64,000 nt of DNA from Spirochaetia bacterium (GTDB lineage: Bacteria; Spirochaetota; Spirochaetia; DSM-16054; Sediminispirochaetaceae). The notes beneath the pieces are model-generated. The model did no database searches and was not told the origin of the DNA. It was given only the letters and a program-made list of their open reading frames with translations. Where the stretch lies: positions 288,001 to 352,000 of the forward strand of contig JAXHMY010000002.1 in the NCBI GenBank assembly GCA_034520965.1, given 5' to 3'. Of this stretch, positions 36,235-51,503 are shown piece after piece. The stretch's first letter is position 1; each line of letters begins with the position of its first letter. Both the position numbers and the translations under genes were made by a program.

Positions 36235-38512
36235 TAGAGAGGCTCCTGTTGTGTGTTTTTTTCTAGTATAAGATAGCTTTTCAGCTGCCGGGCTACTCCG
36301 GCGGGATTGCTAAGTGATGGGGCGGTGAGGCCGAGGGCTTCGCACTCCCCCTGGTGTGAGGTTGTAATGGAGGCTGAAGCGCCTCCGTCAAAGTTAATTA
36401 AAAATTCAAAGGTATCCGACTCTCCTAATGAAATACTGTGCAATTCGGACGGCCTCCGTAAAAGTAGCCCCCTTCGATGAACGTGTTCTACCTGCAAGAC
36501 TTATTAATAACACTTTTCCGGATACAGCTTTGCCCAGCATTGAGCGAGGTTGTGGAACGAACGGATCCAACTGGGTTTCCTGAGTTTCGGATGATTGAAT
36601 CCCATTCCACCCCTCACGTTCTAAAGACGCGACTCCCTGCTGAGGACTTGGATAGAAATTTTTACCCTTATCTACTAGTAGATTGAATCCGCCAACCAGC
36701 CACTCAAGATTCTCTTTCGGCAGCGGTAGTCCATCCAACAAGACATTCCAACGGAAGGAAGTCTTGTATAGAGAAAGATTCTCCTCTAAAACGACCACCG
36801 ATCCGAGAGGCGGAATACGGCAGGGGCCGGGTTGCAGACAGACCAGTTGGTCCTGTACCAGCACCAGGCAATGAAAGCCTCTACCGACCCAGAGTTCATG
36901 ATAAGAAGGCAGATAGAGCCCGGGACCTCCGTCTTGAGGGTTAATCTGTGCTGATGAAAAATCTAACTTATGATCCCACGTTCCATCCAAAGCAGTGATG
37001 GTTAGAGAAGCCTGTCGAAGCGGGTAGTAGCCGGCACACAGTTCTCCGCCGGTTCCGGCTCCAAGCATGGCTTTTTGATACAAGGGAATGGTTTCGTGCC
37101 ACTGTCCCGACCGGTTCATACCGATATAATCTATCAGGAGGTCCATATAGGGTATCTGCTGTGCAGAAGGAACCTGTTGGTTGTAAAGGGATCTCAAGTT
37201 CTCGGTAAAGTAATAGTTAAACGAGGTGTAGAGGGCATCTCCCTTGCCTCCATCCGGACAAATAGAGGCTCGCTGGGTAAGAAGCGCCGGCCTAAACTTC
37301 ACAGACTTCTCCTGCGCAGCAACGGCACTAACTTAAAATGGCCCCATCGGCACCAGCGACTGAGGGCTGTACCATTCCTTCATTAAGTGAAACATAGCTA
37401 TTCACCACTTGATGCCAGCCTATATCCTGCAGTTGTTTCTGTTGCCGCTGAAGTCTATCAGAAAGGTTTTCCACAGGATCACCCTTCAGAAACCGGTAAA
37501 GCGAAAGTGAATTATACTGCACCCCCGACACATCAACCTGAGAAGGAAATGGATGTTCCTGAAAAGCGGCAACTGTGTGCCCGCTCTTCGGCTCTGTCGG
37601 CTGCAGCATTTCTTTATATGATGATTCATACAGGGGAGAGGCCTGAGTAGGTACAGCGGTGTCATAGGCGGATTGAAATAAGCCGCGAGAGAACCACTCG
37701 CTATTATCAATAAAGAAACAGAACCCTCCTACACAACGGAACACCTGCAGGTAGATCCAAATGTTACTTATACATATTAGCTGATCCGCACCTTTCTCTA
37801 CTAAGTCATTGATATCGTTTTCTTCAAGAACAAAGGGAAGCGCTTCTGTAATATAAATCTCTCTGCTGCCCCAAGACCGGGCTGAGAGGAATTGCTCGAC
37901 CTGTTTTGCGGTAACTCCTACCTCTGTATCATCTATAGTGCAGGCAATTTCGATTTCTGCTGCAGACTGCTGTAAAAGCATATATAGTTCGCCCGCGAAA
38001 CGATGGGACGAGCCGGGTATGAACAGAATTCGATTCGCCCTCTGTAAAGCCTCTGTAAAACCGGGCATTACACACACTGTGTTTCCAGGATACAGAGCCT
38101 GTAGTTTACTTTGTATGGAGCTGTGCCCGTTGTTCAATCGGTCTTTTTGAACATATCCTTCAGCAGCTTGCGTTGTATTGAAACTGTGGAAAGGGGGCTC
38201 CGGAACCCCCTTTCCTAACGCGGTTTTTCTAAGCCGCCGTAAATCGCGCAGAATTCGAGCCGGCGTGAATGTATCGATATCCGGGCTGCGCAAAAAAAAG
38301 TCCAGTAGCTGCCGACGATACTCTTCCACTATGGTTGGTTCGTTTATCCCTACCCTTCTGTCCACAGAGCGGTCAATACACCGATCAATTACGATCGACT
38401 TTTTAGGGAGCTGATCAAAAACGAGATAAAACTCTTCAGCCACAAACCTGTGGTACCAGCGGGTTCCCTTTAGCTCTCCGAATCGGAAAGGCCCGCCCCG
38501 GAGGGAGCTCAT
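36234..38512 (-). CDS. Large protein with a C-terminal phosphodiester-glycosidase (NAGPA-like) domain, probably one gene with two frameshifts
   Basis: QPRSMLG...AGRT..SKGATF.E then INFDGGAS in the following frame; pieces are contiguous. Confidence 0.55.
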
Positions 38513-39351: not shown

Positions 39352-40218
39352 TTAATCTTGCTTTGAATTACCGGCAGAAACATAAGTGCAATGAGAACCG
39401 TTCGAAGAAAAGGTCACTGTTGCCAGAGCGGAACCGTATCCGTAGTTACCGGCGTCGAAATACGTCCGAAGGGTGTACAAAGTAAGCGACTCTGTGCTGT
39501 TCGCCGGTCCACCATTGGTTAGAGCTACAATAATGGTATAGACCTTGAAGGATTGAATTAGTCGGAACAGAGTGGCCGTGGCAAGTATAGGTATCAAAGC
39601 CGGAAAAATAATGGAAAAATAGCGCTGAACAGCATTAGCTCCATCAATTGAAGCCGCCTCTAACTGACTACGCTGTATATTCTGAAGACCGGCCAAAACT
39701 AAAAGAGATATATAGGGCGATGTCTTCCATATGTCGGCCGTCACTAAGACAGCGGTAGCAGTAGCAGGCTGACTCAACCACGGGATAAAGGAATCGATTA
39801 TACCCACGGATTCAAAAATGTGGTTTAGAATACCGTATTGATCATTTACCATAAAACGCCATATAAACCCGCTGACAATTGTGGGAATGGCCCAAGGAAT
39901 CAAAACCACCAAGCGTAAAAATGACCGCCCCTTATAGTTCATATTCATAAACTGGGCAAACAGTAATCCAAGTCCAACCTCAGTGGTAACGGTCAGTATG
40001 GTAAACAGAATGGTGAACCGCAGGGATGCATAGAAGCGGGGGGTCGAAAAAAGTTTATAGTAGTTACTAAACCCGATAAAGCTTTTCGCCTCTCCGAATT
40101 GGAGCCGGTATTCAAAAAAGCTTAAACCGATCGTTTTTAATACGGGATACACAGCCAGTAAAGCAAAAATCAATAAGGTTGGAGTAATGAATAAATAGCC
40201 CATTTGCTTTCGTGTCAT
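39352..40218 (-). CDS. Carbohydrate ABC transporter permease (MalF-like), probable 3' frameshift
   Basis: IPWAIP, EAASIDGA, TNGGPANST. Confidence 0.92.
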   Translation of the reverse strand: MTRKQMGYLFITPTLLIFALLAVYPVLKTIGLSFFEYRLQFGEAKSFIGFSNYYKLFSTPRFYASLRFTILFTILTVTTEVGLGLLFAQFMNMNYKGRSFLRLVVLIPWAIPTIVSGFIWRFMVNDQYGILNHIFESVGIIDSFIPWLSQPATATAVLVTADIWKTSPYISLLVLAGLQNIQRSQLEAASIDGANAVQRYFSIIFPALIPILATATLFRLIQSFKVYTIIVALTNGGPANSTESLTLYTLRTYFDAGNYGYGSALATVTFSSNGSHCTYVSAGNSKQD

Positions 40219-40237
40219 AAATACCTCAATCCATTAC

Positions 40238-40263
40238 TCGGGCCGCCCTTACAGGCGGCCCGA
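40238..40263 (-). terminator. Stem-loop between the binding-protein and permease genes
   Basis: TCGGGCCGCC-loop-GGCGGCCCGA. Confidence 0.6.
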
Positions 40264-40282
40264 AAGTAGATGAGTAGAATTA

Positions 40283-41563
40283 TTATTCTCCGACCTTCTC
40301 GAGCGCAACCTGTGCATCCTCGAGAGCCTGATCGACACTTTTTGAACCATTCAGTGCTTTCTGAACTTCAACCTGAATGATGGAAGAAGTTTCCGCGTAG
40401 AAAGGAGTTTTGGGTCGCGGAACGGCGTTTGCCAGAATATCTTCGATCATTCCAAAGAAAGGATTGGCTGCCAGAATTTCTTCGTCGGAATAGAGTGCTG
40501 CGCGGGCGGGAAGATAAGAGTCGTTAAGTGCGTGAAGCTTCATTGCATACTCACTGGCGTAAAACTTCATAAACTTCAGTGCTTCAGCCTTGTGGGTGGA
40601 GTTTTTTGAAACAAAGAGCTGCCAGCCGCCAAGGGTGCTGTGACCCATTTCACCGCTTTTTCCGCGAGGAAGTTCTGAAACCCCTAATTTACCTGCCACA
40701 TTAGAGCTCTCGTCATTCATGGAGAGGGCGTAGGCTTTAGGCCAGGCTCGCATAAAGACCTGGTTACCTTGAAACATCAGATGCCCGTACATCACCGCTT
40801 CCGTAAGAGAGAATCCCTCGGGATACAGGTCAAGTTCGACCATTTCGCGGATAAGTGCAAGGATCTCTTTATTTTCCGGAGTATTGATTTTAATATTGCC
40901 ACTATCGTCAATTACGGTACCGCCATTCGAATAGAACCATTCAACTGCGTTACAGGTGAGCCCTTCATACTGTTTCATAGATCCGGCCATACCGTACATC
41001 TCATTTCCAGCTTCCCGTTCAGCGGTAACAATCTCAAGAGAGGTATTTTTAAGCTCTTCCCAGGTTTCGGGTACTTCTTTGTTGTACTCATTCAAGAGGT
41101 CCTTCCGGTAATACAGAACACCGGCATCGGTTCTGAAAGGAATACCCCATACTTTTCCATTATAGGAGGCCGCATCAATTGTACTCGGCAAAAAAGCGGA
41201 GCGTTCGGAGGCGGGAAAATCTTTTTCAACATCATCAATCAGACCGGAGGATGCAAACAAGGGGGTCCAGGTTACATCAGCGTTAAAAAAGTCGATAGAA
41301 TCATCGCCGCTGCGCAGTGCAATTAGCAGGGCCTGCAATTTATCGCTGGTATTTTCCGGAAGTTCGATAAGATTAATACTGATATTCGGGTTCTCTTCCT
41401 GAAAAGCTTCGATGATTTGTTCCTGTGTACTATTGAAAGTGGATGCATGGGCGTACCAATTCAGTTCGACAGGTCCATCGGCTTCCTGCTCTCCTCCGGC
41501 AAAAATTGTAAAGGGAAGGATCAGAAACAAGACGAGGATTGTAGAAAAATAGTGTTTTTTCAT
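40283..41563 (-). CDS. Sugar ABC transporter substrate-binding protein (trehalose/maltose-like)
   Basis: Signal peptide, DAGVLYYRKDLL, QYEGLTCN, FMRAWP, TLGGWQL. Confidence 0.9.
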   Translation of the reverse strand: MKKHYFSTILVLFLILPFTIFAGGEQEADGPVELNWYAHASTFNSTQEQIIEAFQEENPNISINLIELPENTSDKLQALLIALRSGDDSIDFFNADVTWTPLFASSGLIDDVEKDFPASERSAFLPSTIDAASYNGKVWGIPFRTDAGVLYYRKDLLNEYNKEVPETWEELKNTSLEIVTAEREAGNEMYGMAGSMKQYEGLTCNAVEWFYSNGGTVIDDSGNIKINTPENKEILALIREMVELDLYPEGFSLTEAVMYGHLMFQGNQVFMRAWPKAYALSMNDESSNVAGKLGVSELPRGKSGEMGHSTLGGWQLFVSKNSTHKAEALKFMKFYASEYAMKLHALNDSYLPARAALYSDEEILAANPFFGMIEDILANAVPRPKTPFYAETSSIIQVEVQKALNGSKSVDQALEDAQVALEKVGE

Positions 41564-41692
41564 ACATGGACTCCTTTTAATAAAATTATGCAGTTTACTG
41601 CGTATTTGATATGTTAAACGCAAATTATTACGTTGTCAATCTAATTTACGCAAGTTATTGATTATCTAACACAAATATATTATGATGACTGT

Positions 41693-42919
41693 ATGACGAA
41701 TAATGGTATACATATCGCAAACAGCATTAGAGAACAGCGTATCAAGGCAAAATTATCCCAAACGGCGGTGGCCCAAGCCCTCGACACTCCTCTACGCACC
41801 TACCAGGGCTGGGAAAAGGAGTTTACCTCTTCTATACAAAATCTGCTGAAAATTTGTTCATTCTTTGATGTGCCGATAGAAACCTTTGTTGCCCCTTCCT
41901 ATCGCACCACCGATTCGCAGGAAGACAGTGCTGCTCAATGCAATCCACTACCGGGCTTCAAGATTAAGATATTCCGCATGGCCATGGAGGGGGCTGAAAA
42001 TGAAGAGATTTTTACCTGGTTCAGTAAAATCTATCCCGAAAAAGCCGCAGCTATTACCGACAGAGACCAATTTATAGAAAACTGCTTTCTTGATATATAC
42101 CATTGCAAACCGGAGTTGTTGCAAAATTACCATTTTCACCGTGAAAAGGAAAAGGAACATGCGATAGCTAAGCGGTTTTCCTTGCCGCCGGAGCAAATCA
42201 TTGTGGTGCACTCCGGCCATATTGCCCACGAGGTAATACGCGAGATGATTATAGCTCCATTTGGAGCTCAATGGATCGTAAAGTGGACTACAGAGAAGCC
42301 CGGCCTACGGATCGGTATCTCTAACGGCTTTACCATTGCAAGGATCCTGGATGGAGTGCAGCGCGGCTGTATTGAAAACATGGTCCTCTTCCCTCTCAAC
42401 TTTACCAGTACCCAGGTCGATTTTCCTATTTCCTCTACCGCATTAATCTCCTCATTTCTCTACCGATTTGCCGGTTATGGAGTTACCACCGATACAGTGA
42501 ACGAAGAGCAGGTATACAGCTCGATGCTGCTGGCCGACGCAGCTTTTCTGGGCATTGGTACTTTTTCCACCGAGGGACTCTACGAACGAATGATCCGTTC
42601 GGTATTAGGCCATTCGGTTGTGGCGGATATGCGCACGCAAGGAGTTATCGGAGACTTTAACTATCATCTGTTTGATGCTTCCGGTAATGAGGTGGTTTTT
42701 CCCGAAGTGGTTGCCGATGTAGGTAATTTTGACCAAAAAGCCTTAGTAAAGTCAATCGGACTGGAACAGTTAAAGCAGAAGGCCGACCGCGGGGGGCGGA
42801 TCGTCATTGCCGGTACAGGCGAACACAAAACAGACTCAATTGCTGTTGCATTGAAAAACGGCTACGCCAACCACCTTATTACCGACGAGTCGATTGCCGA
42901 CCAGCTGTTGCGTACATAA
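41693..42919 (+). CDS. Regulator: XRE-type HTH plus a SorC/DeoR-type sugar-binding domain
   Basis: REQRIKAKLSQTAVA..TYQGWE HTH; GIGTF, GVIGD, IAG.G.HK..SI..AL......LITDE C-terminus. Confidence 0.75.
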   Translation: MTNNGIHIANSIREQRIKAKLSQTAVAQALDTPLRTYQGWEKEFTSSIQNLLKICSFFDVPIETFVAPSYRTTDSQEDSAAQCNPLPGFKIKIFRMAMEGAENEEIFTWFSKIYPEKAAAITDRDQFIENCFLDIYHCKPELLQNYHFHREKEKEHAIAKRFSLPPEQIIVVHSGHIAHEVIREMIIAPFGAQWIVKWTTEKPGLRIGISNGFTIARILDGVQRGCIENMVLFPLNFTSTQVDFPISSTALISSFLYRFAGYGVTTDTVNEEQVYSSMLLADAAFLGIGTFSTEGLYERMIRSVLGHSVVADMRTQGVIGDFNYHLFDASGNEVVFPEVVADVGNFDQKALVKSIGLEQLKQKADRGGRIVIAGTGEHKTDSIAVALKNGYANHLITDESIADQLLRT

Positions 42920-42964
42920 AGCGTTCATTCCTTTTTAAGCTGCTTTGATTTATAATACGAATAT

Positions 42965-44215
42965 ATGTACGAAGATTATCAACGAAACCAATCCGAATCT
43001 GCATTTGAGAAAGCCCACGCCAGGGGCCGGCGGCAAATCTTTTCACTTAACCCGATAAAACGCCGGAACAACCGAATACTCACCCTGGCGGCAGTAGTAG
43101 AGCACGCATCCTATCAAAGTGAATCCTATTTGGGGGTGCGGGAGATACCTGTACGTTGGATAATAGGGACAGAGAACCGCAGCAGTGATTATTCTAAAGA
43201 TTTCTACCCGTTGCACAAAAGAATGAAGCGTAACTGGAGTACCATATACCGCATGATGAGCGAAGGCAAAATTTTCGAACCCATAAGAGTGATAGAGTAT
43301 GGGGGGTATTATTTTGTACGGGACGGAAACCACCGCGTTTCTGCGGCGAAACACCAGGACAGAGAATATATCGCTGCTGAGGTTGTGCACTACAGCCTTC
43401 CCTTTTCCCTGCCCCGTAACCTGCATTGGGGAAATCTCAAGCTGCTGGCGGAAAAACACCGTTTTCACCAGCATACACACGTCTTTGAAATACTTCCGGA
43501 AAATGAGTTTTATGTTCGCTGCCCCCACACCTGGCGGTGGCTGACAACTGAAATCTGTGAATACAACCGGACCTGGTTTATTCGAAGGTTTAACCGTCCT
43601 CCGGAGAGCATGGAAGAGCAGCTGCAGAGTTGGTATAAAAACCTTTATCAAAATGCCATCTCTTATATTCGAAAAAACTCACTTACCTATCTGTTTCCGG
43701 GTAAATTAGAGACCGATATTTTTATCGAGATGATCAAACTGTGGAACAGTTTCGATAACCCCGATTCCCTCTGGCTAGGTGAATTGTACGAATTATTTAT
43801 AAAAAAACACCAACGGTTCCGACTGATACGGACACCTTTCCAGCGAATCCATAAAGAGGTAAAGTCCCTTTTTCTGGGGGCTGAGGATGAATACCGGCGG
43901 TTCGCCGAGATTTCTCAAATTGAAGAACTTGTTCCCGAATACACCCCGATAAGGGCTTCAAAGAAATTCTACTCGTTCCTGCATTCACAGCTCATTCACT
44001 CTTATGCTCCGCACCTGAAATCCTTTTACGGCCGCGCCCCGTATATCCAGGAGCTTACAGTCGACTGGTATAATAATATCTACTCGCCGGTCCTGAAGGC
44101 GTATAATGGGGAGAACTTTCCCCAAGCCTACATGCGGTTCTGCAAGCGCTACTATAAGCGAATTATTTCAGGGGACATTCCGATGGAGGCGGCGCTACGG
44201 GAGTTCTTCAGCTAA
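42965..44215 (+). CDS. ParB/Srx-like domain protein with a DUF4032-like C-terminus
   Basis: YFVRDGNHRVSAA motif; repeated WY..(L/I)Y segments. Confidence 0.7.
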   Translation: MYEDYQRNQSESAFEKAHARGRRQIFSLNPIKRRNNRILTLAAVVEHASYQSESYLGVREIPVRWIIGTENRSSDYSKDFYPLHKRMKRNWSTIYRMMSEGKIFEPIRVIEYGGYYFVRDGNHRVSAAKHQDREYIAAEVVHYSLPFSLPRNLHWGNLKLLAEKHRFHQHTHVFEILPENEFYVRCPHTWRWLTTEICEYNRTWFIRRFNRPPESMEEQLQSWYKNLYQNAISYIRKNSLTYLFPGKLETDIFIEMIKLWNSFDNPDSLWLGELYELFIKKHQRFRLIRTPFQRIHKEVKSLFLGAEDEYRRFAEISQIEELVPEYTPIRASKKFYSFLHSQLIHSYAPHLKSFYGRAPYIQELTVDWYNNIYSPVLKAYNGENFPQAYMRFCKRYYKRIISGDIPMEAALREFFS

Positions 44216-44459
44216 AATACCAGCCAAAACACGACCATCTGAATTACTGGTAACAAGCAGACTGCATTTGCTGCTGCAAGAAATTTACCCTGAACAGAGG
44301 CAAGTCCTGCAACTTGCTACAAAAACAGCTTAAGCCCAAGGATGCCGGTTTTTCCAGTAAAAGTGAGAAATTTTGTAAGAAGGGAAACAATTACTTTCCA
44401 CTTCATAACACTCGTAGGCTTTATTTGAGTTTCCCCTCTATTTTTTTTATACTACAAAT

Positions 44460-45764
44460 ATGGAAAACGAAAAAAGAAAACAGACACCGGTATTCTACAA
44501 TACAATGACAAAACGGAATGAAGTTTTTGTACCCCGGCAGGCCGGGGTGGTTAAACTGTTTACCTGCGGCCCCTCTGTGTATCAGCAGCAGCACCTGGGC
44601 AACTACCGCACCTATTTATTTGAGGATGTGCTGCACAAGTACCTTGAATACCTCGGCTACCGGGTCGAGCGGGCAATCAATTTTACCGACCTAGAGGACA
44701 AGGCGATTAAGCGCCTAAAAAAAGAGGGGCTCACCCTCGAGGAGACCACCGGTCCGAATAAGGCGGAGTTTCTAAAAACCTCAAAGGAACTGGGCATTTT
44801 CCTGCCGGATGAAATCCCGCAAGCCACCGGCAGTGTTGAAGAGGCCGTGCAGATTATTGAGGATCTGCTTGAAAAGGGAATCGCCTACTGGCACAAGGGG
44901 AATGTCTATTTTGACCCCCTCAAATATCCGCGCTTCGGAGAGGTGTTTGGTCTGGATATGACTCAGTGGCCGGAAAAACGAGTACGATTTTCCAGGGACA
45001 CCTACAACGGCACACGCTGGAACCTGGGCGATTTCATTCTATGGCACGGAACCTCTTCCGAAGACCCGGTGTCCTGGGACAGCCGCATCGGCAAGGGCAG
45101 ACCCGCCTGGAACGTGCAGGACCCGGCGATGATTCTCAAAACCCTCGGTCCTGAAATTGATATTCACACCGGGGGTATCGACAATGTGTACCGGCACCAC
45201 GACTACAACCGCGCCATCCTTGAAAGTTATTCGGGAAAAAAGCTGGCCCATTACTGGCTGCATGGCGAGCATCTGATTGTAGAGGGAGCAAAGATGTCCA
45301 AGTCGAAGGGCAACACCATGTACCCGAAGGACGCCTACGCCCACGGATGCTCCCCTCAGCAGGTTCGCTTTATGCTGATGTGCACTTACTACCGTCACAA
45401 ACTGAATGTAAGCGCAGAGCGGATTGACGAATGCTGCCGCCACTTTTCCACCATTCGGCAGACATTGGAGGCTATCCAAAGCGGTTCCCCCCGCGAACAT
45501 AACCCAACTGCACCGGCCCGGGTGCACAAAACATACCGCCCCGGCAGCGAGCACTCGGTGGAGAAGCTGATCGACGAGGTGCCGATTCTCTTTAGCACTA
45601 AAATGAACGACGATATGGATACCCCGGGGGCAATTGAGTCAATCGAACATGTGGCGGACGAGTTTTACAGCGCCCAGCAGAAGAGCTTGGTGAACAACAG
45701 CCAGAGACAGCGCTTTATCTCGGAACTGAAATCGATCGACAGGGTACTTGGCTTTCTATTTTAA
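44460..45764 (+). CDS. Cysteinyl-tRNA synthetase-like class I ligase (atypical paralogue)
   Basis: TCGPSVY, HLGN, DFILW, KMSKS present; GRPAWNVQD and HHDYN replace GRPGWHIEC and HHENE; ends after the DALR-like helices. Confidence 0.85.
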   Translation: MENEKRKQTPVFYNTMTKRNEVFVPRQAGVVKLFTCGPSVYQQQHLGNYRTYLFEDVLHKYLEYLGYRVERAINFTDLEDKAIKRLKKEGLTLEETTGPNKAEFLKTSKELGIFLPDEIPQATGSVEEAVQIIEDLLEKGIAYWHKGNVYFDPLKYPRFGEVFGLDMTQWPEKRVRFSRDTYNGTRWNLGDFILWHGTSSEDPVSWDSRIGKGRPAWNVQDPAMILKTLGPEIDIHTGGIDNVYRHHDYNRAILESYSGKKLAHYWLHGEHLIVEGAKMSKSKGNTMYPKDAYAHGCSPQQVRFMLMCTYYRHKLNVSAERIDECCRHFSTIRQTLEAIQSGSPREHNPTAPARVHKTYRPGSEHSVEKLIDEVPILFSTKMNDDMDTPGAIESIEHVADEFYSAQQKSLVNNSQRQRFISELKSIDRVLGFLF

Positions 45765-45782
45765 TATTTGCGACTATCTGAA

Positions 45783-46514
45783 CTATCTCACTTGCAAATT
45801 AACCACAGGCTCGACAGTGTACTCCCCTCCGGGTCGAGCGTTGATTGAGGTTTCAAAGGACAGCCCTCCGGATACTATGCGCAGCCGGTGCCTTCCCTGC
45901 TCCACCTGGGCGGACAGCCCATTAACTCTGCTCCCGTTGATATACAACTCTACTTCGGATTCCGGATAATTGAGGTTTTGGTTGAGCATCTGCTCCGATA
46001 TAACAACGCTTACACGTGCCGGTTTCGGTTGAAGCTTGGCTACCACCTGCCGGTCCCTATTGAGTTTAACGGTCAAAAAATAGTCCTGATACCCCGGAGA
46101 AACAATACGTACATCGTACTCGCCAGGAGACAGCGACCTTTCTATTGGAACAGTACCAACCTTCGAATTGTTCACATAGACCTTTGCATCAGAAATATTG
46201 CTGGTTACTTCAAGAGTATGCCGTTTCGCCGGAGGTGCAACACCGAGCCGTGCATTCACAGTCAGACCCGATTGCCCAACGGTTATACGCTGTCGAAATT
46301 CGGGGCGCCCCGGTTTTCTGACAAGGAGCTCATAACTGCCGGGAGCTACCTGGGCTCTGTATGTGGGATTTGCAATCCCTAAAAGCCTCCCATCCAGTAT
46401 AACCTGAGCAGGTCCCTCACTGGCCTCTATGGTTAAGGGCACTCTTTGGGCAAAAAGACTTCCCGCAATCAACAGAAACAGGAGGGCAACGGAAAAATAT
46501 CTCAGTACTCTCAT
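45783..46514 (-). CDS. PEGA-domain protein
   Basis: Signal peptide plus three beta-repeat units (A.V..DG/N...G..P....PG.Y). Confidence 0.8.
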   Translation of the reverse strand: MRVLRYFSVALLFLLIAGSLFAQRVPLTIEASEGPAQVILDGRLLGIANPTYRAQVAPGSYELLVRKPGRPEFRQRITVGQSGLTVNARLGVAPPAKRHTLEVTSNISDAKVYVNNSKVGTVPIERSLSPGEYDVRIVSPGYQDYFLTVKLNRDRQVVAKLQPKPARVSVVISEQMLNQNLNYPESEVELYINGSRVNGLSAQVEQGRHRLRIVSGGLSFETSINARPGGEYTVEPVVNLQVR

Positions 46515-46729
46515 TATTTACTCCTTGAATCAATCTTTCCAGCTGGTCCCCGATAGAAACGAAATACAGAGTCAGCTGAGATAATTATACTACCCGCAAC
46601 ATGAAAAAACAATTTTTTATAAGATTACTGTGAGGAAAATAAAAATATAGGTTTGTTTGTTTTTTTTAAAGAGTGGATATATACTGCTTAAGGTAAAGCT
46701 GCATAGCTTAATAGAAAGGAGTCGGAATA

Positions 46730-47389
46730 ATGAAGAAATTAGTTGTGGTGTTTATAATGGTCGCAGTCGTAAGTACCGGAGTGTTCGCGCAAGGACTGGG
46801 GTTTGGACTGAGCGTGAATCAGTACTACATGGAGGACGAGAACGGTAACTTCCCCTCCTTGCCGGAAGCCTGGGATGATTTCCGGGAAGGCAACGGCCGA
46901 TACTGGGGCGGGTTCGGAGAGTTTATGGGCCGGAACTATGCCCTTGGATTATCCTTAAATTATATGATCGATAGGGCAGATCCTGATGTCTATAGTTGGG
47001 CAGAAAATCCAAGCAACTATGATATGTGGAACTACGATCTCAACCTTTACCTGGCATACCACTTTCTCGGCACCAAATCGCTTCTCGACCCTTTCCTCCA
47101 GGCCGGCTTCGGGCTCTGGGCCTACGACTATATGAACAAAGATGCTCTCAGAGAAGAAGAAGAGGAGACATGGGTAACCGACGATCCCCTGATGGGTTCA
47201 GCCTACTTCGACCTCGGGGCGGGCCTCGGCGTCAACTTCGGTTCTTTAGGAATATTTTTTAGGGGCATGTACAACTTCCAGTCCGACAAGCCACTGTACG
47301 GTCAGGATCAGAGCGGTTCAGACTATGAGATCTTCGAGCTCCCGGTTATGCCTTTCAAATGGACCTTCGGGGCTAAATTTCTCCTCTAA
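46730..47389 (+). CDS. Putative outer-membrane beta-barrel protein
   Basis: Signal peptide, alternating aromatic/Gly strands, C-terminal WTFGAKFLL. Confidence 0.6.
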   Translation: MKKLVVVFIMVAVVSTGVFAQGLGFGLSVNQYYMEDENGNFPSLPEAWDDFREGNGRYWGGFGEFMGRNYALGLSLNYMIDRADPDVYSWAENPSNYDMWNYDLNLYLAYHFLGTKSLLDPFLQAGFGLWAYDYMNKDALREEEEETWVTDDPLMGSAYFDLGAGLGVNFGSLGIFFRGMYNFQSDKPLYGQDQSGSDYEIFELPVMPFKWTFGAKFLL

Positions 47390-47427
47390 GCCCCTGGAAG
47401 TATAGTTTTTACCATAGAGGTAAATGG

Positions 47428-47463
47428 AAGGGGCTGCCTTGATTCTTGGGCAGCCCCTTTTTT
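47428..47463 (+). terminator. Rho-independent terminator
   Basis: AAGGGGCTGCC-loop-GGCAGCCCCTT followed by a T-run. Confidence 0.8.
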
Positions 47464-47637
47464 CACTGATTCTCCGAACTATACGATTGTAATGCCAGCG
47501 TGCTGGGCACCTAAAGGCTGGGCAAAAGCAGAAACAGAAGCACCGGTAACCTCTGTAATATTTGTCGAATGATCTTGGCAGCCGAAGGGAAACGCGGTAC
47601 ATTAAAATGAGGATAAAATAAAAAGAAGGAGGACGAG

Positions 47638-48120
47638 ATGAATAAAAAAACAGTTATTACCCTGATTATAGCGGTGCTGCTGACCGCAGTTGCAGTGCAG
47701 AATGTCAGCGCCTACGGATACCGGCAATCCCGAATCGGTTTTGGGGTGGGAACCCCGAATGCGGTTATTATCTATCGGCCGGCGCCCTTCGACTTCCGCT
47801 TTGGCTACGATTTTTCCGAGGGCAACCAGTTTATCTTTTTAAGCGGCGACTGGCGGCCCACCGGCAACATACAGATAACCGGACCCCTGCACTTTTACTT
47901 CGGCATAGGCGGCTACGCCAAGTTTTACCCCGGGACCGGCAGCTCCGAGGACTGGTTTGAAGGAGGCACCCGCCTGCCCCTGGGCCTGAGCCTGATGTTT
48001 CTGGACAACGTGGGAGAGCTGTTCCTGGAGGTAGCCCCGGGTTTTGATCTGTACCCCAAACCGGTATTCTCCCAGGACCCGGTTCAGGTGTGGGCCGGCC
48101 TGACCTTTGCCATTCGATAG
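47638..48120 (+). CDS. Small outer-membrane beta-barrel-like protein (DUF3996-like)
   Basis: Signal peptide; G.RLPLGL, ELFLEVAPG motifs. Confidence 0.6.
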   Translation: MNKKTVITLIIAVLLTAVAVQNVSAYGYRQSRIGFGVGTPNAVIIYRPAPFDFRFGYDFSEGNQFIFLSGDWRPTGNIQITGPLHFYFGIGGYAKFYPGTGSSEDWFEGGTRLPLGLSLMFLDNVGELFLEVAPGFDLYPKPVFSQDPVQVWAGLTFAIR

Positions 48121-48138
48121 GCCTGTACAGGGGGCGCA

Positions 48139-48558
48139 ATGAAGGGTTATTTTACCGGACGCGGCTTATCCGGGGCGACGATAAAAATCGTCGCCCTGGT
48201 ACGCAACCTGGTTATTTTTATCGGCGGGGTGTGGTTCTTTGAGTTTAAAGCCGACTACGTGTTTCCCGCCGAAGAGAATCTGCTGCTGTACTTTGTGGCT
48301 ATTCCAATTATTTGGTCTACTCTTATCCACATATGGACCAGCACCAGCTACGGCGAGCAGCAGGGCCTTTTTATGCATCTGTATACCCACCTTATCTCAG
48401 TGCTGCTGTTGATCTCGTCGGTGTTCTTGATCAGCGCCACCCTCAACACCATCTCCGACAGCCTGGACACCCTGGGCAACATTCTGTTCCACTTTGTGGG
48501 CTGGACAGTAATTATCTCGCTGATTTACTACGATATGGTGGATATAAACCGCTATTAA
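48139..48558 (+). CDS. Hypothetical 4-TM membrane protein
   Basis: 139 aa with four hydrophobic segments. Confidence 0.6.
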   Translation: MKGYFTGRGLSGATIKIVALVRNLVIFIGGVWFFEFKADYVFPAEENLLLYFVAIPIIWSTLIHIWTSTSYGEQQGLFMHLYTHLISVLLLISSVFLISATLNTISDSLDTLGNILFHFVGWTVIISLIYYDMVDINRY

Positions 48559-48560
48559 GA

Positions 48561-48584
48561 AAATAGCCGTATCCGGCTATTTTC
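48561..48584. terminator. Bidirectional terminator-like hairpin
   Basis: AAAATAGCCG-TATC-CGGCTATTTT between convergent genes. Confidence 0.7.
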
Positions 48585-48621
48585 GCTGTTTCGGTTGCCG
48601 CTACGCGGCATGCGAAACTAA

Positions 48622-49125
48622 TCAGGCTAACTCGCGGATATAGCGGCGAAGAGCGCTGTTGATGAGGGTCTGATAGCCCGTTTTTTCTTCCGAGGCCTTT
48701 TTCTTGAAATAGAGAATGATGTCGTCGTCAAGCCGGATGGTGGTGGTAATTTTTTTTGGAGTATAGAACCGGCCCCGTTCACCCCCGGAAAAGTCGTATT
48801 CCGGCTCTACTTCAAATACATCCTCAGGTTTTTTCGTATTGTCTTTGCTCATTTTGTCTTTGCTCATTGGGGCGGTCGCCTCCCGTGCCGACACGATTCG
48901 TATGATCTCTTCTCCCTCATAAGTAAAATACAAGTGTGCCACTACTAATAGGAGCAGGTTATGAGTAGCCCCCAAAGTAATCCACCGCTCCTCAAAATAA
49001 TTAAACCGTGTATCTAATATTGAGACGTGCAATGGATCGTTGAAAACTTCTGCAGCTAAATGAAACGAGATGCCGTGCTTTCGCCTGTTTGCTACTGCTT
49101 TATGCTCATCCCATTCAAACCTCAT
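48622..49125 (-). CDS. BrnT toxin / BrnA antitoxin module, read as one in-frame ORF in this sequence
   Basis: MRFEWDEHKAVANRRKHGISF...EERW...IRIVSAREAT (BrnT), then EYDFS...TIRLDDDII.YFK....GYQTLINSALR (BrnA, ATG at 48852 or 48867). Confidence 0.88.
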   Translation of the reverse strand: MRFEWDEHKAVANRRKHGISFHLAAEVFNDPLHVSILDTRFNYFEERWITLGATHNLLLLVVAHLYFTYEGEEIIRIVSAREATAPMSKDKMSKDNTKKPEDVFEVEPEYDFSGGERGRFYTPKKITTTIRLDDDIILYFKKKASEEKTGYQTLINSALRRYIRELA

Positions 49126-49256
49126 AGTCACAGTATACATATAAATATTTACATTGTACATACTATTAGCCTATTATTTTGCAAAATTACTTGTACTCAC
49201 TCCGGCAAGCCGTTTATCATTAAGGGAAGAATAAAATAAGTTAAGGAGATACGGTT

Positions 49257-51503
49257 ATGCAGAAGGGTGAAGGCAAGGGTTTGGCGATTTTGACCAGCGG
49301 AGGAGATGCCCAGGGAATGAACCCGGCGGTACGGGCGGTGGTGCGCACCGCCATTAAATGGGGCTTTGTGCCCTACGGGGTGTACGAGGGCTACCAGGGG
49401 CTGGTGGACGGTGGTGAGTATATTCAAAAGCTGGACTGGGGTTCGGTGGGCGGTATTTTGCACCGCGGAGGCACCACCCTCGGCTCGGCCCGCTCCAAGG
49501 ACTTTCGCGAGAAGGAGGGGCTGATTCGAGGGGTGCGCAACCTGGTGGAGCGAGATATTACCAATTTAATTGTCATCGGCGGCGACGGCAGCCTAAGCGG
49601 GGCGAACGAGTTTCGCAGCCTGTGGCCGGAGCACCTGGATATTTTAGTCGAGCGCGGCGAGATAAGCCCCGAGCAGCGAGAGCGCAACCGGCACCTGAAA
49701 CTGGTAGGCCTGGTGGGCTCTATCGACAACGATATGTTCGGTTCGGATATGACTATCGGGGCCGCCTCGGCCCTGCACCGCATTACTGAGGCAATCGACT
49801 CAATTACCGCCACCGCCTCCAGCCACCAGCGGGCCTTTGTAATTGAGGTAATGGGGCGCAACTGCGGCTACCTGGCCCTGATGAGCGCCCTGGCCGCGGG
49901 AGTGCAGTGGGTGCTGATTCCCGAAAACCCGCCGGATGTAGAGAACTGGGAAGAGCGCATGGTGGAGGTAATGAAAGAGGGGCGGGATGCCGGAAGGCGC
50001 TACAGTATTGCCGTGGTGGCCGAGGGGGCCCGCGACCGCAACGGTACTCCCATTAGCGCAGAACACGTGGTACAGGTGCTCAAGGAACGGCTTACGCCGG
50101 ATACCCGGCTTACCATTCTGGGCCATGTGCAGCGGGGAGGCACCCCCTGCGCTTTTGACCGCTACATGAGCACCATGCAGGGCTACAAGGCGGTGGAGAC
50201 TATCAGTGAAATGAACGAAGACGACCCGGCCCAGCTGATTGGGCTGCGCAGACACTCCAACGTGGCCTCGCCCCTGATGGACTGCGTGCAGGAGACCCGC
50301 TCTATCAAGGAAGTAATAGAGAACAGAGAGTATGCCAAGGCAATGAAGATGCGCGGGGGCAGTTTTGCCGACTCCTACGACACCTTCCGCACCCTTATCA
50401 GCGCCCTGCCCCGTAATCCGGTTCCCGAGACTCAGCGGCTGCGCATCGGGGTGATGCACGGCGGCCCCCCTGCTCCCGGTATGAACACGGCGGTACGGGC
50501 GGCGGTGCGCATAGGCATAGACAACGGGCACCAGATGTACGGGGTGCACAACGGCTTTGAGGGGCTGATTAAAGGAGACATTAGCCCGATGGATTGGATG
50601 AGCGTGGACGGCTGGGCTTCCCAGGGGGGCAGCGAGCTGGGTACTAACCGCCGAGTACCTACCGAAGAGGAATTGCCCATTGTGGCCCGACACCTGCGGG
50701 AGAAGAAGATGAACGGGCTGCTGATGATCGGCGGCTGGGACGGCTATGCGGCGGCCCATCTGCTGCACAGCCGGCGGGATGAATTCCCAGAGTTCAACAT
50801 TCCGATTATCTGCCTGCCCGCTACTATCAACAACAACCTGCCCGGCTCGGAGCTGAGCGTGGGCTCCGATACCGCCCTAAACACCATCATGGAGGCGGTA
50901 GATAAAATTAAACACTCCGCGGTGGCCTCGCGGCGGGTGTTTGTGGTTGAGGTGATGGGCCGCAACTGCGGGTATCTGGCCCTGTTGAGCGCCCTTTCCA
51001 CCGGGGCCGAGCGGGCGTATCTGCAGGAGGAAGGGCTTACCCTGAAGGACCTTCAAAATGATATAAAGAACCTGGTAAAGGGCTTTGAACGGGGCAAGCG
51101 GCTGGGCTTGATGATCCGCAACGAAAATGTGAATGAGTTTTACACCGCCGACTTTATGCGCTCGATCTTTGAGCAGGAGGGCCAGGGGCTGTACGATGTG
51201 CGGCGGACGATTCTGGGGCACCAGCAGAACGGCGGCGACCCCAGCCCCTTCGACCGCATTCAAGCTACTCGCCTGGCCAAGCGCAGTATGGAGCATATTT
51301 TCATCGAGGCGGCCAAACCACAGCCGGAAAGCTACATGTGCGGCCTGGTCAACGGTCAGGTTCAGTTTAACTGGTTACACAAGTTTTACGAACTGGGCGA
51401 CGGAGAGCTGGAGCGTCCACACCAGCAGTGGTGGCTGAAAATACGTCCGGTTGCCACTACCCTTGCATCGGAGGACACTCCCCTGGACTACACTGAGCTG
51501 TAA
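49257..51503 (+). CDS. 6-phosphofructokinase, eukaryote-type tandem-duplicated form
   Basis: 748 aa with two PFK halves: TSGGDAQGMNPAVR / GGDGSLSGA / GSIDND, and GPPAPGMNTAVR / PATINNN / LGHQQNGG.PSPFDR. Confidence 0.93.
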   Translation: MQKGEGKGLAILTSGGDAQGMNPAVRAVVRTAIKWGFVPYGVYEGYQGLVDGGEYIQKLDWGSVGGILHRGGTTLGSARSKDFREKEGLIRGVRNLVERDITNLIVIGGDGSLSGANEFRSLWPEHLDILVERGEISPEQRERNRHLKLVGLVGSIDNDMFGSDMTIGAASALHRITEAIDSITATASSHQRAFVIEVMGRNCGYLALMSALAAGVQWVLIPENPPDVENWEERMVEVMKEGRDAGRRYSIAVVAEGARDRNGTPISAEHVVQVLKERLTPDTRLTILGHVQRGGTPCAFDRYMSTMQGYKAVETISEMNEDDPAQLIGLRRHSNVASPLMDCVQETRSIKEVIENREYAKAMKMRGGSFADSYDTFRTLISALPRNPVPETQRLRIGVMHGGPPAPGMNTAVRAAVRIGIDNGHQMYGVHNGFEGLIKGDISPMDWMSVDGWASQGGSELGTNRRVPTEEELPIVARHLREKKMNGLLMIGGWDGYAAAHLLHSRRDEFPEFNIPIICLPATINNNLPGSELSVGSDTALNTIMEAVDKIKHSAVASRRVFVVEVMGRNCGYLALLSALSTGAERAYLQEEGLTLKDLQNDIKNLVKGFERGKRLGLMIRNENVNEFYTADFMRSIFEQEGQGLYDVRRTILGHQQNGGDPSPFDRIQATRLAKRSMEHIFIEAAKPQPESYMCGLVNGQVQFNWLHKFYELGDGELERPHQQWWLKIRPVATTLASEDTPLDYTEL

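Follow-up and report, generated by a model that had tools for sequence, protein, structure and literature searches.

The analysed window, a 64,000-nt stretch of the spirochaete genome G000, carries on its forward strand an open reading frame related to cysteinyl-tRNA synthetase (CysRS) at positions 44460..45764. This ORF, P0001, runs uninterrupted for 434 aa and lacks an anticodon-binding domain. Its neighbours in the window are a sugar ABC transporter, a DeoR-type regulator, an orphan 416-aa ORF and a PEGA protein. A local pathway built from these genes was rejected, since none of them recurs in the immediate surroundings of the gene in the five closest relatives. The 416-aa ORF, located upstream (42965-44215, forward strand), had no Pfam or NCBIfam match at an E value of 0.05 and was absent beside the gene of close relatives. 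The sugar ABC cluster also contains a 394-aa ORF (37328-38512, reverse strand) with no Pfam or NCBIfam match, which adjoins phosphodiester-glycosidase-like and glycosyltransferase-like genes. An Rfam search of window positions 40000-50000 gave no match at or above the gathering score.

A consensus scan predicted a sigma-70 promoter (TTGAGT-17-TATACT; 44425..44453, forward strand) that ends 6 nt before the ATG of P0001. The scan returned three sites versus 1.7 in shuffled sequences, a difference that is not significant by itself. In 6/6 close relatives the TTTGAG and TTATA cores were kept, as was the 6-nt spacing to the ATG, while the DNA upstream diverged. The segment 44425-44462 contained no Shine-Dalgarno-like sequence, and the P0001 transcript is predicted to be leaderless and stand-alone.

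The Pfam search assigned residues 24-325 of P0001 to PF01406 and returned a weak DALR_2 match at residues 378-433. This DALR-like helical bundle (45591..45758, forward strand; PF09190, E value 4.8e-4, below cut-off; helices 364-430 of the model) is the last domain of the protein. The first-pass annotation had noted that the C-terminal anticodon domain was missing, and this held: PF23493 was not found in P0001 even at an E value of 0.05, whereas the canonical CysRS of the same genome has it. The stop does not stem from the assembly: the 120 best phmmer homologues all end within 17 residues of the P0001 end, and no separate anticodon-domain fragment turned up in G000. P0001 scored 296.6 bits against the CysRS model TIGR00435, below the cut-off of 340 (the canonical copy of the genome scored 488), and 168 bits against the MshC model TIGR03447 (cut-off 485.1), in agreement with the earlier distinction from MshC. 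The AlphaFold2 model (pLDDT 89.9, pTM 0.91) had CysRS 8QHP as its best Foldseek match (E value 1.2e-35, TM 0.83), with MshC ranking next (TM 0.74-0.76). In both sequence and fold, P0001 resembles CysRS more closely than MshC.

Residue equivalences were taken from an alignment to E. coli CysRS (1LI5), and all motifs below lie on the forward strand. The ATP signatures and first cysteine, previously described as intact, were all located in the uninterrupted ORF. TCGP (aa 35-38; Cys codon 44565-44567) places Cys36 at E. coli Cys28. It opens the segment C36-G37-P38-S39-V-Y41 (44565..44582), comprising the first metal cysteine and the alpha-amino-binding loop, in which the family has Ser where canonical CysRS has Thr. 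The HIGH-type motif is HLGN (44592..44603), whose Asn is also common in canonical CysRS (18/21), and KMSKS lies at 45291..45305. The motif GRPAWNVQD (45096..45122) keeps the Trp lid, with W217, N218, Q220 and D221 aligning with W205, H206, E208 and C209 of the E. coli enzyme. Further downstream, GGIDNVYRHHDYN (45171..45209) keeps the ribose GxD and both histidines, with R245, H246, H247, D248, Y249 and N250 standing for P233, H234, H235, E236, N237 and E238. The last of these E. coli residues, Glu238, is presumably a zinc ligand. The alignment thus confirmed the Asp and Asn reported earlier at the Cys209 and Glu238 positions (D221 and N250).

We have compared these positions across 293 distinct family sequences, part of which had been fetched by patterns containing the motifs themselves; the cleaner test is provided by the 120 best phmmer matches, picked by score and not by motif. 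C36, W217, N218, Q220, D221, R245, H246, H247, D248 and Y249 were present in 120/120 of the latter, so the substitutions, whose conservation among homologues had been put forward as a test, are shared. The same ten residues were held in the 293 sequences with one exception, at N218. The ATP and amino-group residues H45, G47, D241, K281, G37, S39, T76, Y41 and W217 were invariant (293/293), as were C36 and N48, with K278 present in 269/293. The Glu238 position was variable (N in 185, T in 81 and S in 19 of the 293). N242 was rejected as a family innovation, being inherited from GGIDN-type canonical CysRS. One later locus, in G1347, has Ser in place of the family Asp and no KMSKS match.

These data bear on the metal site. 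MshC binds zinc through C43, C231 and H256, and its residues G44, T46 and T83 hold the amino group; C43, G44, T46 and Y48 correspond to C36, G37, S39 and Y41 of the family (PMC9736012, excerpts). The family retains the counterparts of these contacts as C36, H246, G37, S39 and T76, with Asp221 standing where MshC keeps Cys231. An Asp at the 209 position was also found in 23 full-length archaeal CysRS that keep Cys28 and His234. We label these WHIED-type; they occur in Methanomicrobiales and Thermoplasmata, and in one methanogen class GRPGWHIED proteins with an anticodon-type tail were found in 22/151 genomes (L083-L104). The single-contig archaeal genome G002 has such a protein (L137) as its sole full-length CysRS match and gave no SepRS match, so by elimination this protein should charge tRNA-Cys. 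WHIED-type proteins differ from the family in having Glu238 and the anticodon-domain tail, the two tested pass TIGR00435, and they lie elsewhere in the tree. A quick tree (unrooted, with no MshC rows) rejected descent of the family from the WHIED clade and indicated that the two Asp residues arose separately; hence, the analogy for Asp221 is not one of descent. The natural Cys209 to Asp change, occurring also in full-length archaeal CysRS, lets the strictness of the two-cysteine need be tested.

The metal site of the family was thus probably rebuilt and not lost, as a putative Cys36/Asp221/His246 site. The first-pass annotation had described two zinc ligands as lacking; the changed residue identities stand, but Asp can itself serve as a ligand, and a loss of the zinc site is not supported as stated, given the invariance of Cys36 and His246 and the Asp at 209 in the archaeal enzymes. 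The same observations make cysteine a still plausible substrate of P0001. The earlier proposal of a non-cysteine substrate could not be upheld as stated, given the invariance of Cys36, His246, Trp217 and the alpha-amino binders G37, S39 and T76. On the other side, an E. coli CysRS with both cysteines changed (C28/209D) loses its activity in translation (PMC5660078, excerpts), and the pocket is ringed by six invariant changes (N218, Q220, D221, R245, D248 and Y249), which may have made it unsuited to cysteine.

The acceptor-side CP1 loop (WPxxxxRFxxDTYxGxRWNxG; 44967..45029, forward strand) is basic and aromatic, with W170, P171, D180, N188 and G190 present in 293/293 sequences. Its median net charge is +4 in the family, compared with -3 in 21 canonical CysRS and +3 in 22 methanogen WHIED CysRS, and P0001 itself has +2. 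The canonical Arg at 176 was kept in 282/293 family sequences. In CysRS, CP1 reads the first acceptor-stem pair of the tRNA (PMC5389517, excerpts). The acceptor side of the family is clearly rebuilt. Together with the invariant R245, the basic loop points to a negatively charged acceptor; RNA is a candidate, and so is a small molecule bearing phosphate or carboxyl groups.

The dN/dS comparison proposed in the first-pass annotation gave values of 0.054-0.093 for P0001 against five relatives at 85-91% identity, which indicates purifying selection. In quick trees (unrooted, with no MshC rows), a branch with full support and a length of about 1.4-1.5 changes per site sets the family apart, and the closest canonical CysRS is of the HIGN/GGIDN type (32-38% identity). 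At least 550 relatives were confirmed among the 600 pattern matches examined in genome contigs. In viral contigs, none of 32 pattern matches was confirmed as family, and phage copies were thus rejected. Even draws, with counts that each include the centre genome, found the family in 20/301 Spirochaetota genomes, 14/401 genomes of the phylum of a Syntrophobacter genome, 14/251 Nitrospirota, 9/201 Thermoplasmatota and 1/151 genomes of a methanogen class. The spread is therefore patchy over Spirochaetota, Desulfobacterota, Nitrospirota, Thermoplasmatota and methanogens, and it is patchy among kin too, with 4/9 same-genus genomes carrying the family. Two copies on different contigs were seen in G927 (L042/L054) and in one Spirochaetaceae bin (L020/L027). 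A broken copy in G941 (L274:5448-6278) lacks about residues 90-233, and in G819 (L252/L253) the ligase and an adjoining MATE gene are both frameshifted.

P0001 is not the sole cysS of its genome, a point raised earlier for checking: the canonical copy lies at G000:C8:260642-262099 and has WHVEC, HHTNE and the anticodon domain. A second CysRS match was present in 20/20 Spirochaetota carriers. The 20 second copies that were fetched (from 16 Spirochaetota carriers and four others) were all full length; the motif was WHIEC in 19 of them and WHIED in the other. The archaeal genome G001 was the only carrier seen without a second copy, and it has SepRS. Since carriers hold a second full-length CysRS and the exception has SepRS, the family is accessory and not the working CysRS.

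Where sources name the gene, it is plainly "cysteinyl-tRNA synthetase" or "class I tRNA ligase", and a 190-member ESM Atlas cluster, probably the family's own, bears no more specific name than "class I tRNA ligase family protein". The literature covered on CysRS paralogues and the CysRS active site, which leaves subscription papers mostly outside, described no family with these motifs. Excerpts from PMC9437257, PMC5424206, PMC5388404, PMC8762117, PMC11580382, PMC2770081 and PMC5370406 contained only MshC, CysRS*, Zur-linked full paralogues and unspecified CysRS duplicates. Supplements such as the CysRS* alignment of PMC5389517 and the paralogue tables of PMC5388404 could affect the novelty. 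It is a genuine family of CysRS-derived enzymes that is apparently uncharacterised.

We have then looked at the gene neighbourhoods of the homologues, as the first-pass annotation had suggested. The scans covered 150/152 nearest ORFs in one set and 102/134 in another, 25 cluster representatives and 52 chosen ORFs, with long ORFs scanned over their first 400-450 aa. Exporters recurred beside relatives, but nothing recurred near the window's own clade: in the window, P0001 has neither an exporter nor a pathway neighbour. G000 contained no orthologue of the family-linked MATE (best score 135 bits versus about 800), and the complete genome G003 gave no MATE match at all. A co-oriented MATE gene lay within 400 bp of the family gene in 55/223 loci, a figure inflated by the choice of 80 of the 223 loci for likeness to a MATE-clade member, and an ABC-2 permease lay within 1.3 kb in 10/223.

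One MATE orthologue was found upstream on the same strand in 35/86 loci of one subclade, and directly upstream in 11/13 newly drawn Nitrospirota carriers (even draws). Among 81 genomes of one Desulfobacterota order, it was present in 8/12 carriers (including the frameshifted G819) versus 5/69 non-carriers; it adjoins the ligase in seven of these carriers and, according to a later scan, in the eighth as well. Unrelated MATE genes abut the family gene in a spirochaete (L019) and in a Thermoplasmatota archaeon (L305). Downstream of the family gene, an ABC-2 exporter is present in Desulfohalobiaceae/Desulfobacteraceae and another, unrelated one in one spirochaete genus. The three MATE types are 24-28% identical and the two ABC-2 permease types 24% identical. 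Being so remote from each other, they make up five pairings that are apparently independent, where 0.15-1.1 would be expected (Poisson P 5e-7 to 6e-3, with 2-13 such genes per carrier); the exporter category was defined post hoc, and two of the five pairings are single loci (L019 and L305). The repeated adjacency to MATE and ABC-2 exporters in relatives favours a small-molecule product, and tRNA independence would likewise be favoured by these neighbours. The MATE-ligase pair is a two-gene unit whose product is directly searchable by metabolomics.

Other candidate partners were less consistent. ARAGORN, which can miss 8/4 tRNAs, found no Cys or Sec tRNA beside the family gene in 120 loci, where it detected five unrelated tRNAs; with relaxed settings, the 350-nt flanks yielded one tRNA-Leu. 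Matching pairs of 350-nt flanks numbered 278; in the 60 most distant of them, the paired loci share flanking protein genes, except for two short matches. With default settings, 37 tRNAs were found in G000, none for Cys, Ser or Ile, in an assembly that is 86% complete. SelA exceeded its cut-off in 2/5 carriers and was absent from the single-contig genomes G002 and G004, and no recurring selB cluster appeared among the neighbours scanned. Partners from low-molecular-weight thiol pathways (bacillithiol, mycothiol) were not found: BshA exceeded its cut-off in 0/5 carriers, MshA (TIGR03449) also in 0/5 (best score, in G000, 196.9 of 462.5 bits), and a PIG-L deacetylase was present in 10/20 carriers versus 10/13 non-carriers.

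A weaker hint concerned redox stress, in which the family may have a role. Superoxide dismutase (SOD) genes lay in 6/179 flanks, which corresponds to 3.7 per Mb; over 33 carrier genomes the density is about 0.15 per Mb. Rubrerythrin-like genes were present in 15/179 flanks. The SOD neighbours represent about three independent events and the redox genes few independent lineages. At the genome level SOD did not co-occur with the family (16/33 carriers and 14/42 non-carriers), and G000 gave no SOD match. Malic enzyme (3/179 loci), CysK (3), NifS (7) and WrbA (6) were set aside as too rare or confined to one lineage, and the PGM, dihydroorotate dehydrogenase/DUF502 and dsr-region neighbours look like lineage synteny.

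Our best guess is that the family works like MshC without being MshC. Judging from the motifs, cysteine and ATP would give cysteinyl-AMP on the putative Cys36/Asp221/His246 site, with Asp221 binding the metal by analogy to the WHIED-type enzymes. The rebuilt CP1 loop would hold a small, probably anionic amine to which the cysteine then passes, and the MATE or ABC-2 pump would export the product, which could be a metabolite or a conjugate formed in detoxification. We hold this tRNA-independent cysteine ligase, with a small-molecule amine acceptor and an exported product, as a tentative reading whose chances fall short of even; it is weakened by the lack of recurring acceptor-making genes, as seen for BshA, MshA and PIG-L. 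Its most specific version, a second and independent tRNA-free CysRS offshoot that makes an exported cysteine amide with a Cys/Asp/His site and a MATE/ABC-2 partner in sediment-type bacteria and archaea, is rather unlikely. The acceptor might instead be RNA, either a non-canonical tRNA recognised through its acceptor stem, as for CysRS*, or a modified base of a normal tRNA, as for Glu-Q-RS. [quoted passage not shown] The basic, aromatic CP1 with its retained Arg176 fits RNA at least as well, and a lone gene spreading over bacteria and archaea needs a universal acceptor. Such an RNA product would nevertheless leave the exporter pairings unexplained, and the 120 loci scanned offered no Cys or Sec tRNA, with no flank similarity beyond the shared protein genes and the two short exceptions, and no consistent SelA. 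We therefore consider an RNA acceptor unlikely, although it is the main rival.

Somewhat less likely again is a tRNA-independent ligase for a non-thiol amino acid, the reading closest to that of the first-pass annotation. The amino acid could be one with an oxyanion side chain, for example Asp, cysteine sulfinate, cysteate or phosphoserine, and would be accommodated by Arg245 and Gln220 together with a Cys/Asp/His metal site of harder character. The six invariant polar replacements round the pocket would suit it, H246 and N250 would fall on the MetRS pocket residues H301 and W305 (query 236-285 matched to MetRS 291-339; PMC3742241, excerpts), and SOD and rubrerythrin-like genes occur in some flanks. 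However, Trp217, Cys36 and His246 are kept, an Asp at 209 exists in full-length CysRS, N242 is inherited from normal CysRS, and the few SOD events do not track the gene across genomes. Taken jointly, the cysteine and non-thiol versions of a tRNA-independent ligase have slightly better than even chances. A dedicated cysteine persulfide synthase, in which the PLP-dependent side activity of CysRS was freed from translation, is very improbable. The E. coli C28/209D double mutant does lose translation activity and keep persulfide synthesis (PMC5660078, excerpts), many carriers belong to sulfur-cycling groups, and three of the four KIIK/KMSK lysine positions of this activity (CPERS) are conserved, the counterparts of K73, K266 and K269 being present in 293, 269 and 293 of the 293 sequences. 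That of K76 is not (commonest E in 68, S in 53 and A in 47 of 293), and each single Lys mutant had reduced activity (PMC5660078, excerpts). Since the PLP sites lie apart from the HIGH and zinc sites according to the same excerpts, persulfide activity would not explain the invariance of the latter or the rebuilt CP1. Slightly less credible still is a role as back-up CysRS, in which the protein would meet stress (oxidation or low zinc) by charging ordinary tRNA-Cys through the acceptor stem alone. The cysteine-binding core is largely kept, and the family protein is the only CysRS-like match in G001, but this archaeon has SepRS. Deletion of the ABD alone gives a less active CysRS (PMC5389517, excerpts), the Zur-linked CysRS paralogues in excerpts from PMC2770081 keep the zinc residues, and P0001 stays below the TIGR00435 cut-off. 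Finally, broken copies in G941, G819 and G1347 recall a decaying pseudogene or assembly artefact; for P0001 this was refuted by the selection data, and the promoter cores kept in all six relatives and the confirmed genome stretches, at least 550, make it scarcely credible.

Returning to the tRNA-independent cysteine ligase, known systems help to place it. Canonical CysRS (CysS; TIGR00435, PF01406 plus PF23493; PDB 8QHP, 1LI5/1U0B) has the same fold (TM 0.79-0.83) and shares HIGH, KMSKS, Cys28, His234/235, Trp205, Thr68 and the DALR bundle. The family differs from it by having no anticodon domain, by C209D, H206N, E208Q, P233R, E236D, N237Y and E238N/T/S, by a rebuilt CP1 and by being accessory, patchy and below the equivalog cut-off. 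The canonical Cys28/Cys209/His234 (plus Glu238) zinc site is replaced in P0001 by one with D221 and N250. MshC (TIGR03447; PDB 3C8Z, 8HFM) is likewise CysRS-derived and without an anticodon domain, its amino-group contacts G44, T46 and T83 correspond to G37, S39 and T76 of the family, and it is likely the best model for how the family works. Glu-Q-RS (YadB) has no anticodon domain. Like the family it is a truncated class I synthetase, but it comes from a different parent synthetase, and it is listed as a stand-alone paralogue (PMC9437257, excerpts).

The CysRS*/selC*/SelB* system resembles the family in being a second cysS copy without ABD, with a changed CP1 loop and found in Desulfobacterales, yet the CP1 loop of the family differs from the PTVS motif given for CysRS*, the two being compared by description only (PMC5389517, excerpts). 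With no Cys or Sec tRNA in 120 loci and SelA missing from two single-contig carriers, the family is not the CysRS*/selC* system. Excerpts from PMC9437257 list MshC, Glu-Q-RS, CysRS*, HisZ and the aa:carrier-protein ligases as truncated synthetase paralogues, and every such paralogue characterised so far gave a new reaction. The present family occurs in at least five phyla and two domains and is easily recognised by WNxQD/RHHDY.

A fusion partner for the family was rejected, as none of eight longer candidates scored, which is weak evidence; a 1113-aa open frame in G885 proved to be a mere in-frame stretch across the upstream MATE gene. Several other CysRS-like proteins were encountered. The ORF L105:5248-7674 in G003 fuses a cysteine-synthase-like N-terminus (judged by eye) to a degenerate CysRS with no zinc cysteines or KMSKS. 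G930 (L276) and G929 (L277) contain similar 760-805-aa frames with degenerate CysRS motifs, and a 710-aa frame in G926 (L275) keeps WHIEC and KMSKS. In the ESM Atlas, other short CysRS-like clusters of about 380-415 aa hint at additional families of paralogues without the anticodon domain; these clusters are commonest in Chloroflexota, Mycoplasmatota, Pseudomonadota and Nitrososphaerota.
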